In this document: piece by piece, positions 5,089 to 10,616 of the stretch
Position numbering within the stretch: position 1 is the first letter of the stretch
Layout: every line of letters begins with the position of its first letter
DNA from: a virus
Lineage: Duplodnaviria; Heunggongvirae; Uroviricota; Caudoviricetes
DNA: 29,651 bases
Virus record (IMG/VR): IMGVR_UViG_2563366842_000009
Direction: 5' to 3' (one strand)
Made by a program: the position numbers and the translations under genes
Notes under the pieces: generated by a model
Databases searched by the model: none
What the model saw: only the letters and a program-made list of their open reading frames with translations
Told to the model about the DNA's origin: nothing

Positions 5089-5366
5089 GAAAAACACATC
5101 AACTAAAAATTCGGCCTGAGTTTTTTCAGGCTGTCATCAATGGAACGAAAAAAGCCGAGTTTCGTCTTGCTGACCGTGCTTTTGCTGTAGGGGATTTACT
5201 TTGCTTAAACGAGTATGGCCACTGCGAGTATGACCCGCAAAAGGTCGGGTTTACAGGGGCATTTGTCTACGTGCTGGTGACTCATGTAACTGACCTTAGC
5301 GAGTGGGCTCCTGGCTATGTGATGCTAAGCATACAGCGTAGGCAAATGGGGGAACTATGCGGGTAA
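5085..5366 (+). CDS. ASCH/DUF3850-like small protein
   Basis: Start at ATG 5085 (AAGGCGG RBS); the N-terminus (HQLKIRPEFFQAVINGTKKAEFRL.DR.F.VGD) resembles the ASCH-like DUF3850 fold as recalled. Confidence 0.55.
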   Translation: MRKTHQLKIRPEFFQAVINGTKKAEFRLADRAFAVGDLLCLNEYGHCEYDPQKVGFTGAFVYVLVTHVTDLSEWAPGYVMLSIQRRQMGELCG

Positions 5367-7591
5367 GCGTTAATTATGCTTACCCGTGGAACACTCCACG
5401 GTCGGCAATAGCCAGCCCATATCTTACCTATAACCAACAGCATCGCCGCGACCGTATGTTCGCGGCTTTGCTGCATGCGAGAAAGGTGCTTTCTCTGCAG
5501 CCTGAGTGCGTGCGATTTGACGTTTATCGCACCGCTGAAGTGCTGGAACAAAATCAGGGCAGTCAACGAGCCAATGCTTTTTTAATCAACTTCTGCAAAA
5601 AGGCATTGCCGCGTCTTGAACTGGTCGCAAAAAAATATGAGTGTGCAGGCATTAGCAGCGATGTATCAGGCGCTGTTTTCGGTGGTCATTTCGATACGAA
5701 ATATATGCAGTATCTGGCATCACGTATGGTCAATATGGTCGCCAGATACAACCGCCTCCCGGATATGTCGCGTGCCGACATTGACCTGCTTTCTGCTGAT
5801 ATCGCTAATTTTATTCGTGCTGAACTGGCAGAACATGATGACGCTGATTCACATTTCGGCGAGTTGGCGACATTACATGGCTGGTACATGCGCGCCGGAT
5901 TAATTGCGCTGCAATTTGGTGTTACTCCTCCTCATTGGGCGGGACTGACAACAAAATACTTTGACCAGGACAAAGCGGCGCCAGCAATCATGCGCATGTT
6001 TAATGAGGTTTGGTGGCGTGGCCGTCTGCGACGCATTGCTGCGTCATGGCGCGAACATCTGCAAATTGCAGTCGGTAATGTCAGCAAAAAACGACACGCC
6101 TACGCGAGTAAAAATTGTGTGACCGACTGGCGCGAGCAGAAGCGCCGCACGCGTGAATTTCTCAAAGGGCTGGATCTCGAAGACGAAGACGGCAACCGCA
6201 TCAGCCTGATTGAAAAATATGATGGCTCGGTCGCCAACCCTGCGATACGTCGCTGCGAGCTGATGACCCGCATCCGTGGGTTTGAAAATATCTGTAATGA
6301 ACTCGGTTATGTCGGGGAGTTTTACACCCTGACCGCGCCGTCTAAATATCACGCCACAACTAAAGCAGGCTACCGTAACAGCAAATGGAACGGAGCCAGC
6401 CCGTCGGACACGCAGAGTTATCTCACTGGCCTTTGGGCGCGCATACGCGCCAAGCTACACCGTGAAGAAATCCGCATTTTCGGCATCCGTGTTGCCGAGC
6501 CTCATCACGACGGGACGCCTCACTGGCACATGCTTATGTTTATGCTGCCGGAAGACGTTGAGCGTGTGCGCCTCATTATTCGCGATTATGCGTGGGAGGA
6601 AGACCACCACGAACTGAGAAGCGATAAAGCCAAAAAGGCACGTTTTCATGCCGAAGCCATTGACCCGGAAAAGGGCAGCGCTACCGGCTATGTCGCTAAA
6701 TACATTTCCAAAAACATCGACGGATATGCTCTTGATGGTGAAACCGATGACGAAAGCGGTGAGCTGCTGAAAGAGACAGCTCCCGCCGTATCAGCATGGG
6801 CGGCGCGCTGGCACATCCGTCAGTTCCAGTTTATCGGCGGTGCGCCGGTGACGGTCTACCGTGAATTACGTCGTCTCGCTGATACCGAGACCGCGCACGG
6901 TCTGAGCGTTGAGTTTGCTGCCGTCCATGATGCCGCTGACGCCGGTGACTGGGCTGGTTACGTTAATTCGCAGGGTGGTCCGTTTGTCCGTCGCGATGAT
7001 TTACAGGTGCGCACGCTGTATGAGCCGCGCCCCGAGTTTAACCAGTATGGTGAGGAAACCGTCTGCATTCGTGGCGTCTACGACTCTGCTGTCGGTGCTG
7101 GCACCCCGATTTTAACCCGGTTAACGCAGTGGAAAATTGTGCCGAAGCGTGCCGTTGATTTGGCCGTTGACGTTAAGGGCGCTCCTGCGCCCTCTCGGAG
7201 TTCTGTCAATAACTGTACGGGAAGCGAAAGCGATCCACCGGAACTCGATTTATCAAAACCCCTGAGTCGACGTGAAAGACGAGAGCTGACCAACCGACTC
7301 AGGAAGCAAAAGCCAGCAATACGGCGAAAATTCATCCACGGAACGGATGAGCAAAACGCAGCTATAGCTAAAACTATCGACGAGATACAACTGACAACCG
7401 GCATTACAATCGGCCGTGGCGAAGCCCTGCACCTGATGGCCGGTGGTAAAAGTTGTTTTGATGGCAAATGGCTACGCGGAACGGCCAAAGGAGAAATATT
7501 CTTAGCAGCACCATCGCATCAGGCTAAGGCTAGAAAAATCCTTTATCGTGTTGCTGCGATGGCTGAGGCATCAAAACCAATGCCTGAGTAA
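5357..7591 (+). CDS. A: Rolling-circle replication initiator endonuclease (P2 gpA family)
   Basis: 744 aa. HUH-type metal-binding motif (TPHWHMLMF) and catalytic tyrosine motif (GYVAKYISKNIDG) characteristic of P2 A / phiX174 A-type replicases; size and position match P2 gpA. Confidence 0.9.
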   Translation: MRVSVNYAYPWNTPRSAIASPYLTYNQQHRRDRMFAALLHARKVLSLQPECVRFDVYRTAEVLEQNQGSQRANAFLINFCKKALPRLELVAKKYECAGISSDVSGAVFGGHFDTKYMQYLASRMVNMVARYNRLPDMSRADIDLLSADIANFIRAELAEHDDADSHFGELATLHGWYMRAGLIALQFGVTPPHWAGLTTKYFDQDKAAPAIMRMFNEVWWRGRLRRIAASWREHLQIAVGNVSKKRHAYASKNCVTDWREQKRRTREFLKGLDLEDEDGNRISLIEKYDGSVANPAIRRCELMTRIRGFENICNELGYVGEFYTLTAPSKYHATTKAGYRNSKWNGASPSDTQSYLTGLWARIRAKLHREEIRIFGIRVAEPHHDGTPHWHMLMFMLPEDVERVRLIIRDYAWEEDHHELRSDKAKKARFHAEAIDPEKGSATGYVAKYISKNIDGYALDGETDDESGELLKETAPAVSAWAARWHIRQFQFIGGAPVTVYRELRRLADTETAHGLSVEFAAVHDAADAGDWAGYVNSQGGPFVRRDDLQVRTLYEPRPEFNQYGEETVCIRGVYDSAVGAGTPILTRLTQWKIVPKRAVDLAVDVKGAPAPSRSSVNNCTGSESDPPELDLSKPLSRRERRELTNRLRKQKPAIRRKFIHGTDEQNAAIAKTIDEIQLTTGITIGRGEALHLMAGGKSCFDGKWLRGTAKGEIFLAAPSHQAKARKILYRVAAMAEASKPMPE

Positions 7592-7704: not shown

Positions 7705-7887
7705 ATGGTTGGCGAACATTTCAGCCGAACGCAGCAAAAGTGGGCTTGTGTGCAATTTATCGCCGAGGTATCTCTGATTGCAAACTGCAAGCCATCAGAC
7801 TTAAAGCTCGCGCTCACTCTCATTGCAGACCTAGCAAACAGCGAAAATAACGAAACCGAAGATGATATTTTTTATAAGGCTGATTAG
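7705..7887 (+). CDS. SOS-operon ORF 1 (60 aa), possible N-terminal part of a Tum-like antirepressor
   Basis: Immediately downstream of the LexA box with a strong RBS; ends at TAG 7885..7887, in the same frame as the DinI-like ORF that starts one codon later. Confidence 0.55.
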   Translation: MVGEHFSRTQQKWACVQFIAEVSLIANCKPSDLKLALTLIADLANSENNETEDDIFYKAD

Positions 7888-7890
7888 ATT

Positions 7891-8124
7891 ATGAGAATCA
7901 ATATCACGTTGGATAAAGAGCAAAAAATTAGTCAGGCAACGTTGGATGCACTAGAGGCTGAGCTGTACCGCAATCTTCAACCTATTTACCCAAAGACTGC
8001 TATCCGCATTCGCAAGGGCTCCGCAAATGGTGTTGAGCTAAGCGGTTTGAAACTGGACGAAGATAAAAAACGAGTAATGGAAATCATGCAGCAAGTATGG
8101 GAAGACGATAGCTGGCTGCATTAA
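7891..8124 (+). CDS. DinI-family protein (Tum C-terminal-like module)
   Basis: 77 aa aligning along its length with E. coli DinI as recalled (MRI.[IV]T..K......A.DAL..EL.R......P......R.......LS........K.R..EI.Q..WE....W); low-GC region. Confidence 0.8.
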   Translation: MRINITLDKEQKISQATLDALEAELYRNLQPIYPKTAIRIRKGSANGVELSGLKLDEDKKRVMEIMQQVWEDDSWLH

Positions 8125-8130
8125 TAAACG

Positions 8131-8165
8131 CCGCCAGCGCTGAAACTCGCTTTCAGTGCTGGCGG
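8131..8165. terminator. Hairpin between convergent genes (15-bp stem with 1 mismatch, loop ctcgc); candidate bidirectional terminator
   Basis: ccgccagcgctgaaa / tttcagtgctggcgg inverted repeat located between the DinI-like stop (8124) and the stop of the minus-strand 312-aa gene (8198). Confidence 0.5.
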
Positions 8166-8197
8166 GGTTGAACAACGAGCTACGCGAGGCGTTAGTG

Positions 8198-9136
8198 TTA
8201 ATTTAGTTTTAATGAATGGTACTCAACCGAGTCGACCTTAGATTTGATATATGTACAATCATTTACAGAGAGTAATGCTGCTAGTAAGCGACATACCAGA
8301 GCCTGCATTTCTCGTAATATATCATCACCATATTGACCGCCATTAACACTGGAGAAACCAAGCGGTTGACCATAGAAAATAGCCTCATGAAAATTATCAT
8401 TGCGGATGGTTGTAATATTTTTTTTGCCTGTTACCCATGAAGGACGTGGTATGCCATAGGTTTCGCACAGCCACTTTAACCGCCTGGAATGATTTAACGT
8501 TTTTTCAGGGCACTTGTTTTTTTCTGCCCACGCTAAAGCAAAGCAACCATCCAATGCCATATAAAGATAATGGAACTTTTCAAATGAAAGGTATTGTGGG
8601 TTGTGAGATAAAAATAGTGCGTGCACCACTGCCGCTATTTTTATTGGTGATTTCTCTTTTTTTTGCTCGCTAGATATGTAATTGAGAGCCAATTCTATGA
8701 TTGCTTTTTCAGAGCATCTGCCGAGAGTAAAGTCTGTTAACTTAGCAGGCTTGATGGGGGTTGCATCTAAAAAACCAGCTTCGGTGGTTGTTAATCTCAT
8801 CCCCCTGAAAAAAGACAGGCACCACACAACAAAGTTGAGAGTTTCTAGCGAGGATGTATTTTTTAATTTTAGTATGTGCGTTTTTGGTAATCCGAATACT
8901 CGGCAACTATAAGGCATTGTGGATATGCCGCCATTAAAGTTATATATCTCTTGGTTTCCGGGGTATATCCAGCCATTAACAACATTTTTGTCATTGTTAA
9001 CGCGCTCTACTTTCTCAGCGAGGCCGGGTAAAGTAAGTAAAGAAAAATTTTCAGTCTCAATGTTAACTTCTACTGGATAGTATCCAAACTCAGATCCAAT
9101 CTCATCGGGCTGCTGTTCGGTAACTTCACCTTGCAT
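8198..9136 (-). CDS. Orphan 312-aa protein in the A-cos accessory hotspot; candidate anti-phage defence or abortive-infection protein, function unknown
   Basis: Good RBS (GGAG 6 nt before ATG at 9136); low GC relative to the phage backbone; no signal peptide or obvious transmembrane segment; occupies the old/tin position of P2. Contains an R-N-x-x-x-H motif (RNDNFH, 8387..8404), which is only weak evidence for a HEPN-like RNase. Confidence 0.7.
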   Translation of the reverse strand: MQGEVTEQQPDEIGSEFGYYPVEVNIETENFSLLTLPGLAEKVERVNNDKNVVNGWIYPGNQEIYNFNGGISTMPYSCRVFGLPKTHILKLKNTSSLETLNFVVWCLSFFRGMRLTTTEAGFLDATPIKPAKLTDFTLGRCSEKAIIELALNYISSEQKKEKSPIKIAAVVHALFLSHNPQYLSFEKFHYLYMALDGCFALAWAEKNKCPEKTLNHSRRLKWLCETYGIPRPSWVTGKKNITTIRNDNFHEAIFYGQPLGFSSVNGGQYGDDILREMQALVCRLLAALLSVNDCTYIKSKVDSVEYHSLKLN

Positions 9137-9373
9137 ATCTTTCTCCGTTCAAAAATAGGCTCGATAGTTATGGAGAGGCTATCATGTTTGGAAATAGCCA
9201 ATGTTCGTGATTTTTGTAAATTTAAGGTGATTTATCAATAAATAAGCTGTGCATGCAACAGGTGCATGGTTTTGCATGCGTCAGGCTTGCCCGTTCTGGT
9301 AGTGCGCCGCCAGAGCTGGCACGGATCCAGAGTGGTCATGCAACTGCATTAAAACCGACCCATAAAGCGGGCA

Positions 9374-9392
9374 GGCGTGGCGGGGAAAGCAT
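9374..9392. other. Candidate cos site (19-nt cohesive-end sequence GGCGTGGCGGGGAAAGCAT)
   Basis: Matches the 186 cohesive-end sequence as I recall it, differing at 2 of 19 positions from the recalled P2 cos; lies about 180 bp downstream of the portal gene Q, as expected for P2-family phages. Confidence 0.6.
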
Positions 9393-9533
9393 TGCGCGCC
9401 AGAGGTGGTGCGTAATAATAAAAATTATCGTCTGAGCGCGCCATGATGGCGCGTTTATGGTCGCTTTCGATTCGTTGGTGGTTGGGTGTGGTAGTGCGCG
9501 TGCGGCGCGTCTGAGGCGTGATGGTGGCGGGGT

Positions 9534-9557
9534 ATGAAAAAACCGCCATAATGGCGG
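9534..9557 (-). terminator. Short hairpin (ccgcc-ataat-ggcgg) followed by a U-run on the minus strand; candidate terminator of the leftward P-Q operon
   Basis: Immediately downstream of the Q stop on the minus strand; plus-strand aaaaaa gives a T6 tract on the minus strand. The stem is short (5-6 bp). Confidence 0.4.
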
Positions 9558-9569
9558 CTTGAGGGGGAG

Positions 9570-10616
9570 TTATTCCGGGTTATCGAGGGTGTACTCTTTG
9601 AACCTGATGACCTCCATGCCGAGCCAGTCGTTTACCTCCCTGAACCTGTCCTGCAGCGGCGACAGCTCGTTACGCACAAATACCTTTGCCACCTTCTCAA
9701 CGTCACCGAGCGAGCCGATATTCTCGGGCTTACCGCCCATTAGCTGGAAAGGTACGCGGTGCGCATCCATCAGGTCGGCGGCACTGGCTTTCTTGATATT
9801 GAAAAAGTCATCCTTTGTGGCGACCTCGCTCAGTGGCACGATTTTTATGCCGTCCGGTTTTCCACCGGGGGCGTAGAAAAACAGGTTCTTAAAGTTGCCG
9901 AGCCCTTTCGAGTTGCGCATCGCCTCGCGTAGTGATTCGACGTCGGTCGCACTCTGCGCCGGGTCGGTTACATACATGATGTAACCCGCGTGCGCGCCGT
10001 TCTGGTAATACTTGCGGCGGAACAGCGTTGCGGATTCATTCAGCCAGGCAGAATTAAGCGCGCTGAGATATTCCGGCAGGCCGTAAATCTCCTGATTAAT
10101 GTCAGGCTCCAGCAGGTGAAACACGGTATCAGGCGCGAACTCATGCGGCTGAGTGAAGTTTTCCACAAACCAGAAAATTGAATCATCAACCCCACGGCGG
10201 GTGTATTTTGCTGGTGATGCCAGCAACTTGATTAACTGGCCGGTGACGCTGTGGCGCTGCTCAAGAAAAGCGTTGCCGAAGACCAGATAGTCGAGCGCAA
10301 AACGGCTGAAATCCTGACGGGACAGCAGCGGGTGCGGAATGTAGGTGCTCGCGAGCACGTTGCGTTTAACGTAAATCGGTGAGCTGTGATGCACGGCAGA
10401 GCGCAGGCTCTTTGCCAGCCCGGAAAAGCTGACCGGCGGCTCGTACCATTTGCCGTTACTGATGCACTCGACATAATCCAGAATGTCGCGCTTATCGAGC
10501 ACCGGAACTGGCTCACCGAAGGTGAACGCTTCCATTTTTTGCGGTGCGCTGGCTTTCAGTTGCTGTGGTGCGCGTGTTTTCTGCGCGGCGGCTTTGCGGG
10601 ATTTTTGCTTACCCAT
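9570..10616 (-). CDS. Q: Portal protein (P2 gpQ family)
   Basis: 348 aa; extensive recalled similarity to P2 Q (MEAFTFGEPVPVLD.RDILDYVECISNG.WYEPPVSF.GLAKSLR.AVHHSSPIYVKRN.LAST...). Start overlaps the stop of P. Confidence 0.95.
   Translation of the reverse strand: MGKQKSRKAAAQKTRAPQQLKASAPQKMEAFTFGEPVPVLDKRDILDYVECISNGKWYEPPVSFSGLAKSLRSAVHHSSPIYVKRNVLASTYIPHPLLSRQDFSRFALDYLVFGNAFLEQRHSVTGQLIKLLASPAKYTRRGVDDSIFWFVENFTQPHEFAPDTVFHLLEPDINQEIYGLPEYLSALNSAWLNESATLFRRKYYQNGAHAGYIMYVTDPAQSATDVESLREAMRNSKGLGNFKNLFFYAPGGKPDGIKIVPLSEVATKDDFFNIKKASAADLMDAHRVPFQLMGGKPENIGSLGDVEKVAKVFVRNELSPLQDRFREVNDWLGMEVIRFKEYTLDNPE

Follow-up and report, generated by a model that had tools for sequence, protein, structure and literature searches.

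The virus record IMGVR_UViG_2563366842_000009 (Caudoviricetes), a stretch of 29,651 nucleotides that was analysed whole and is referred to here as the window, carries between its gpA-like replicase gene and its portal gene Q a cassette of low guanine–cytosine (GC) content that encodes a single protein of 312 amino acids. We conclude, from a predicted fold and a conserved motif, that the C-terminal domain of this protein is very probably a HEPN domain. For the complete statement, that the cassette is self-contained hotspot cargo encoding a cytoplasmic two-domain HEPN RNase that acts by abortive infection, we consider the chances evenly balanced. In the mechanism that we propose, which is modelled on other HEPN immune effectors, the protein would be made in the lysogen and held inactive, and the N-terminal domain would be the direct or indirect sensor of infection by another phage. 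A pair of HEPN domains would then form a composite, metal-independent RNase site and cleave RNA (tRNA, mRNA or rRNA), so that translation would stop and the infection would abort, with protection of the lysogen population and of the resident prophage.

The case for a HEPN domain was built from a structural model and from conservation. Predicted helices place the C-terminal HEPN-fold domain at residues ~143–300 (8237..8710, minus strand), with helices modelled at residues 143–156, 163–176, 184–206, 216–227, 241–251 and 270–288 and with a predicted core that is an all-alpha, four-helix up-and-down bundle, as in HEPN domains. Helix 241–251 carries R245-N-D-N-F-H250-E251 (codons at 8384..8404, minus strand), a HEPN-type Rx4H motif. 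HEPN domains have R-x4-6-H, typically R-[NHD]-x3-H, and the family of the 312-residue protein follows this pattern. Across 79 sequences, down to 24% identity, R245 is conserved in 99%, N246 in 95%, H250 in 100% and E251 in 92%, and the residues invariant in the deep alignment are H250, E186, R283, G112 and G260. The ranked list of HEPN comparisons is headed by Csm6 (9.3), AF0298 (9.3), a HEPN–MNT toxin (9.2), 4nqf (9.1) and AbiA (8.8), followed by SO_3166, YutE, the sacsin HEPN domain, ST0689 and HI0074, with AbiV, Csx1, LsoA and Cas13h1 lower down. Membership of the HEPN superfamily is thus well supported, because both fold and motif point to it. An earlier note on this DNA had remarked that RNDNFH loosely resembles the HEPN motif and had called this weak evidence; the residues are indeed 245–250, and with fold and conservation added the case has become much stronger. 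We also built a profile of the DS-11 HEPN domain and compared it with the family profile using hhalign, which returned a single alignment, motif-to-motif and in register (R245–R86, N246–N87 and H250–H91), of 14 columns only. The family profile gave nothing informative by hhalign against single HEPN sequences (DS-11 and ANEX). Judged by its sequence, the 312-residue protein is outside every described HEPN family and represents a new one.

The N-terminal domain (residues ~10–140; 8717..9109, minus strand) is predicted to be beta-rich with two helices. Its near-invariant residues are F17, G18, P21, W56, R79, T86, H87, G112, R114 and D135, and D124 is invariant among 41 closer homologues. A search for relatives of this domain matched no family and no solved structure.

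The gene itself is an open reading frame (ORF) of 312 codons with an ATG start (8198..9136, minus strand), preceded by a Shine–Dalgarno GGAG (9143..9146, minus strand) that lies 6 nucleotides 5′ of the ATG and is unchanged in five cassette copies. Its product is identical to WP_001550188.1, an E. coli 'hypothetical protein', and is a member of phrog_5937. The ratio of nonsynonymous to synonymous substitution rates (dN/dS) against four E. coli or phage homologues was 0.24–0.27 and did not differ between the halves of the protein, which shows purifying selection on a functional gene. We rejected the possibility of a non-gene on the grounds of this selection and of the size of the family. With a GC content of 0.394 against 0.527 for the window, the gene is the lowest-GC 939-bp stretch of the window (mean 0.528, s.d. 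0.050), and GC at third codon positions is 0.36 compared with 0.68 in portal gene Q. No membrane segment was found in the protein, its highest 19-residue Kyte–Doolittle mean being 1.51, and it is predicted from hydropathy to be cytoplasmic. These results bear out the earlier description of a minus-strand gene with its own ribosome-binding site and a GC content below that of the backbone, whose product has no membrane segment and is probably cytoplasmic.

We next consider the position of the gene. The prophage backbone is PSP3/SEN1-like (Peduoviridae), with ~90% nucleotide identity over 84–85% of the first 25 kb, and the gene order is gpA-like replicase, tum/dinI, the 312-codon gene, cos and portal Q. 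In BLAST comparisons, backbone homology to PSP3 and SEN1, which have other cargo here, stops at 8196 and restarts at 9245–9250. The cargo cassette is therefore 8197..9244 (minus strand): 1,048 bp with a GC content of 0.386, comprising the gene and ~108 bp upstream of it. It lies between gpA and gpQ next to cos, at a site that is variable among related phages, as expected of hotspot cargo. The low GC content and the cassette structure support horizontal acquisition, as the earlier note had proposed when it placed the gene in the replicase-to-cos hotspot. Experiments support that gpA–gpQ locus as a defence hotspot (PMC9122126), and the family ranks 11th in frequency among P2-hotspot systems.

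The family is large and has a partial record. A word-index search returned 695 relatives, none of them named or assigned a Pfam domain, in Salmonella, Citrobacter, Klebsiella, Enterobacter, Aeromonas, Pseudomonas, Acinetobacter, Xanthomonas, Stenotrophomonas, Lysobacter and Providencia. An exhaustive profile search gave 658 clusters at 50% identity, a family spread across the Gammaproteobacteria. Among the best 150 of these 658 clusters, most members are ~300 residues long and match over their full length, the remainder being shorter and partial; nine over-length family members contained no extra Pfam domains. These counts do away with the label 'orphan' that the gene had been given. A homologue with 80–83% nucleotide identity occurs in 93 of 5,426 complete E. 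coli genomes, chromosomal every time.

The earliest deposit of the gene, ORF313 of P2-EC67 (AM157369.1), dates from the original survey of the variable locus. Rousset et al. 2022 analysed 18,150 gpA–gpQ loci and curated 169 systems, and their Table S5B contains the 312-residue protein as P2-hotspot system #11, a single protein with 218 occurrences, for which the domain and comment fields are empty. The invariant peptides of the family are absent from their Table S2, which holds the protein sequences of all cloned systems. Since it is in Table S5B yet absent from Table S2, the family was catalogued but was not among the tested systems. The earlier note had put the protein forward as a candidate for an undescribed defence protein; with its listing as system #11, 'undescribed' is an overstatement. 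Family peptides were not found in the available parts of the DefensePredictor and Vassallo 2022 supplements, and the literature text that was searched contained no mention of the family's accession numbers, PHROG id or UniProt id. The unknown loci tested in a 2026 P2/P4 preprint came from P4 only. WP_097419291.1, a 311-residue 'predicted novel defense gene' of the DefensePredictor supplement that is alike in size, proved to be an unrelated protein.

Genomic contexts were surveyed in 42 loci from a scan of viral contigs, whose layout was determined by tblastn with the A, Q, P, Tum and DinI proteins of the window. In 40 of the 42, the family gene lies between Q and A, on the same strand as Q and directly beside cos, usually ~435 bp past Q. 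Alleles of just 49–58% identity occupy this same slot, and the slot is used in both replicase lineages, one 37% and the other ~90% identical to that of the window. PSP3 and SEN1 carry other genes in the slot, and the family gene is variably present among near-identical phage backbones. The two viral exceptions are L074, where the gene is antisense between P22-type portal and capsid genes, and L075 (4259–5734), a non-P2 prophage in which it follows a CI-like repressor (HTH_3 and Peptidase_S24) and a DUF4145 protein; exclusion genes classically sit at this latter place, in the immunity region. A member of 37% identity adjoins a Rha regulator and a tape-measure gene. In these other phage types the family gene can be read as a moron. 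A phage structural or regulatory protein was rejected as an identity for the product, the gene being missing from near-identical backbones and present in non-phage islands.

The non-phage loci that we sampled are mostly mobile or defence islands. One P. aeruginosa island has DUF932 and ParB genes, with a Gabija-like OLD–TOPRIM ATPase and a UvrD helicase 3 kb away; a second, bounded by an integrase, has a SEFIR/TIR/NACHT protein, an HNH gene and a resolvase. The Providencia islands combine AbiH with TIR_2 and DUF3800, or a type I restriction–modification system with GmrSD, or PIN_12 with IS91. Elsewhere the neighbours include Mrr_cat (Xanthomonas) and PIN_8 (Acinetobacter), a Stenotrophomonas member lies within a Tn7/Mu-like element, and a member of 30% identity adjoins an integrase fragment.

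We then compared the protein with known systems. Like P2 old and tin and other gpA–gpQ cargo, its gene occupies the cos-adjacent locus and is variable among near-identical phages. Old is an ABC-ATPase/TOPRIM nuclease and Tin targets the single-stranded DNA-binding protein of T-even phages; the 312-residue protein is unrelated to both in sequence and predicted fold, and the old and tin phenotypes have been shown. Hotspot cargo of this P2 locus is treated by Rousset et al. 2022 and, reportedly, by Odegrip et al. 2006. A close parallel in architecture is DS-11 (CBS–HEPN), also a single protein from E. coli accessory DNA, in which a non-nuclease domain at the N-terminus precedes a C-terminal HEPN domain with a very similar motif (IRNDVMH compared with IRNDNFH). 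However, the N-terminal domain of the 312-residue protein is not a CBS domain (no Pfam match), there is no family-level sequence similarity (hhalign probability 2.8%), and the defence phenotype of DS-11 has been demonstrated whereas a defence role for the 312-residue protein is deduced. The catalytic residues of the DS-11 HEPN domain are required for defence, as established by mutagenesis (PMC13092281).

The resemblance to Csm6 and Csx1 (CARF–HEPN) covers only the HEPN part in aligned length; unlike these proteins, the family has no CARF or SAVED match (Pfam and PADLOC), and no sampled locus has CRISPR neighbours. HEPN–MNT toxins (type II/VII systems; SO_3166 and 7ae2/8xdj) and minimal HEPN proteins (AF0298, HI0074 and YutE) are ~120–150 residues long and paired with an MNT antitoxin, whereas the present protein has 312 residues with a fused, conserved 140-residue N-terminal domain and comes from a single-gene cassette, an arrangement that is not that of a toxin–antitoxin (TA) pair. 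The single-gene HEPN abortive-infection proteins AbiV, AbiD/AbiF (Abi_2) and ApeA, considered with the HEPN domain of AbiA, differ in the N-terminal domain. No hidden Markov model match was obtained to Abi_2, HEPN_AbiV, HEPN_Apea or PADLOC models; the best score, E = 0.15 for HEPN_Apea, came from one member out of 79. RnlA and LsoA, HEPN mRNA endoribonuclease toxins active against T4, gave a weak structural match (root-mean-square deviation 8.7 Å); unlike them, the protein has no sequence match and its gene has no downstream RnlB/LsoB-type antitoxin gene.

Several results weigh against a defensive HEPN RNase. The checks against Pfam and PADLOC that had been proposed for the protein were run, together with NCBIfam, and no model matched: neither Pfam (E ≤ 10) nor NCBIfam matched the protein, the family consensus and the separate domains had 0 Pfam matches at E ≤ 10, and PADLOC-DB v2.0.0 left the query unmatched at E ≤ 10. 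Among 79 diverse members, no Pfam family was significant (best HEPN matches HEPN_RiboL-PSP, E = 0.074, and HEPN_Apea, E = 0.15, sub-threshold matches that were each from a single member and stood amid other noise), and PADLOC-DB gave only four single matches at chance level (best E = 0.006). Foldseek with a first, lower-quality model found nothing significant in the PDB (best E = 0.74), and the DS-11 alignment covers just 14 columns (P = 0.016, probability 2.8%). Some HEPN proteins are non-catalytic. In close relatives the N-terminal domain is better conserved than the HEPN half (81–84% compared with 73% amino acid identity; dN 0.09–0.11 compared with 0.16), an unusual pattern if the domain is to recognise phage proteins, which evolve fast. 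The cassette offers neither an antitoxin nor a partner gene to account for the restraint of toxicity. Aeromonas loci have housekeeping neighbours and no obvious mobile or defence genes, and the context evidence as a whole is a plain tally without statistical control.

Other search results were set aside. PHROGs returned families of unknown function only (phrog_5937). Bcl-xL (E = 0.6 in the PDB sequence/profile search) and the N-terminus of E. coli NrdB, which matched residues 243–283 in the motif region at E = 0.008, are weak and probably chance matches. The same probably applies to bacterial RyR-domain proteins, whose single domains matched residues ~3–57 at E = 0.16–0.46 while Pfam RyR was unmatched; this resemblance reaches E = 0.0019 only for a duplicated chimera. 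Cas1 was considered owing to noise matches in Foldseek and was dropped, as the Cas1 fold with E/H/D metal-binding residues was not seen.

A more specific proposal is that the proteins form a new and widespread single-gene abortive-infection family, in which the N-terminal domain would be an infection sensor or ligand-binding switch of a new kind and would license a Csm6-like HEPN RNase with no need of a partner or antitoxin; we regard this as possible but doubtful. Since the N-terminal domain exceeds the nuclease in conservation, infection would be signalled not by a variable phage protein but by a conserved small molecule, a nucleic-acid feature or a host factor. If the family is defensive, a frequent, unannotated occupant of the P2 hotspot (#11 of 169 curated systems) would gain a function and a likely mechanism, and the catalogue of RNA-targeting immunity would grow by one HEPN family and one regulatory domain, both new. 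The conserved N-terminal domain could then lead to a trigger, possibly one common to hosts from E. coli to Xanthomonas. If it is not defensive, it would be a useful counter-example to guilt-by-location annotation of hotspot cargo. An experimental test would be cheap because the cassette is small (~1 kb) and self-contained.

Three alternatives to abortive infection were weighed. The protein could be a HEPN toxin that works mainly as an addiction or stabilization module, or as selfish toxic cargo, and stabilizes its prophage or island, with control by autoregulation, by a host factor or, in some lineages, by an upstream Xre-type regulator or antitoxin. We consider this unlikely. The family does resemble HEPN–MNT toxins, and an Xre-type helix-turn-helix gene recurs directly upstream in Pseudomonas and Xanthomonas loci; however, neither the window cassette nor most loci contain a gene of antitoxin size, an MNT nucleotidyltransferase is a neighbour in no sampled locus, and minimal TA toxins do not typically have a fixed, conserved N-terminal domain of 140 residues. 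In the gpA–gpQ hotspot, moreover, many TA-like modules proved to be defence systems (PMC9122126).

Improbable, too, is a HEPN-fold protein that serves the phage, as a counter-defence factor (one that degrades a host immune signal or RNA, for instance) or as a regulator of host or prophage RNA in lysogeny or induction. At least three types of phage carry the gene, it adjoins the SOS-responsive tum/dinI operon, and its highly conserved N-terminal domain would fit a conserved ligand or host target. Csm6-type HEPN domains can, moreover, degrade cyclic oligoadenylates. Yet chromosomal islands with no link to phage genes carry the gene just as often, beside bona fide defence genes, and its variable presence among near-identical backbones is what one would expect of exchangeable defence cargo. 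Nor is it co-transcribed with tum/dinI, because the two are convergent with a strong hairpin between them. Finally, the helical domain might be merely HEPN-like, a four-helix bundle with a fortuitous R-x4-H in a protein whose unrelated function, for example that of an enzyme or binding protein of unknown class, may be centred on the N-terminal domain. The unmatched HEPN profiles fit this view and the combination of fold and motif goes against it; we give it little credence.

To judge from its sequence, the cassette seems autonomous: a conserved promoter region, a ribosome-binding site and a terminator hairpin all belong to it. The upstream block is 86% conserved among the five cassette copies compared with ~80% for the coding region. 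A candidate sigma-70-like promoter within this block (TTGATA-17-AAAAAT; 9210..9238, minus strand) is weak, with a 9/12 consensus match that alone is not above chance. Between the promoter-like region and the ribosome-binding site lies a degenerate palindrome, TCCATAACTATCGA (9161..9174), which in the cassette alignment is perfect (TCGATAATTATCGA) in vB_EcoM-613R3 and E. coli SF-468 and is a possible operator. At the other end, a hairpin at 8127..8169 (19-nucleotide arms, ΔG −37.5 kcal mol−1, z = −4.8, with 0 of 200 shuffles folding as well) lies between the stop of the DinI-like gene (8124) and that of the 312-codon gene (8198) and is common to these convergent genes, in agreement with the shared hairpin that the earlier note had placed between the gene and the SOS operon. 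It is a probable bidirectional terminator and recurring cassette boundary.

Upstream of the cassette the sequence belongs to the packaging region. The cos-type 19-mer GGCGTGGCGGGGAAAGCAT occurs once in the window, at 9374–9392, and we take it to be the 186-type cohesive end. The conserved cos region around it (9244..9399), which is backbone and not cargo, shows 81% column identity when aligned with the cos regions of P4 and a Klebsiella P4-like satellite from Table S2 of Rousset et al. 2022. The interval 8131–9373 thus mixes cargo and packaging signal, and it cannot be kept as the gene with its native upstream region, as it had been described, since 9244–9373 belongs to the conserved P2/P4 cos region. 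The flanking backbone genes are the gpA-like replicase (5357..7591), the tumA-like gene (7705..7887, plus strand) and the dinI/tumB-like gene (7891..8124, plus strand), the latter two with 94% nucleotide identity to PSP3 tumA/tumB and the SEN1 equivalents, and on the far side of cos the portal protein gene Q (9570..10616, minus strand). Directly after the Q stop there is a tight inverted repeat, AAACCGCCAT/ATGGCGGCTT (9540–9560, minus strand), followed by a T-run; a simple terminator scan did not list it, and from its sequence it is probably the Q terminator, shielding the cassette against late transcription.

The hairpin and its flank (8126–8196 of the window, ~70 bp) recur as a cassette-boundary element. 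Two copies are present in PSP3 (L024, 1255–1325 and 1660–1737), after dinI/tumB and then after gp37, and two in SEN1 (L025, 1225–1295 and 1630–1699), where the second is in the spacer between dinI and SEN1_42; in both phages the second copy is ~335 bp beyond the first. The element also accompanies ORF313 in P2-EC67 (L001, 1337–1379), where the neighbour is ORF226 and not dinI. Possibly it serves as a common terminator and, at the same time, as an anchor for recombination when cargo is swapped.

Some variation among the loci was also observed. In Pseudomonas and Xanthomonas, some loci have an ORF of 73–117 codons 50–180 bp upstream of the family gene and on the same strand, which the window cassette does not have; the sites are P. 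aeruginosa L030–L033 (L030, 7729–7950), P. viridiflava L029 (1621–1842) and Xanthomonas L016–L018 (end at 7821). This ORF is an Xre-type helix-turn-helix gene except in L016, where it has no Pfam match, and may act as a controller, or as a partner resembling an antitoxin, in part of the family. The Pseudomonas loci also have a serine resolvase gene directly downstream. In Aeromonas veronii (L008–L011), an AlkZ-like (PF06224) winged-helix gene is always found 105 bp upstream on the same strand (6684–7895 in L008–L010 and 3268–4479 in L011); Aeromonas is the sole sampled context without mobile or defence hallmarks. One allele, 100% identical to the window protein over the aligned residues (L038, 4611–4775 and 6001–6771), is split after residue 55 by an insertion of ~1.2 kb, the IS3-family element ISSen4. 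An extra segment of ~700 bp lies between P and Q in L034 (3807–4514), L038 (2415–3122) and L052, L053 and L055 (3805–4512) and is missing from the window; its product is 36–39% identical to part of terminase P.

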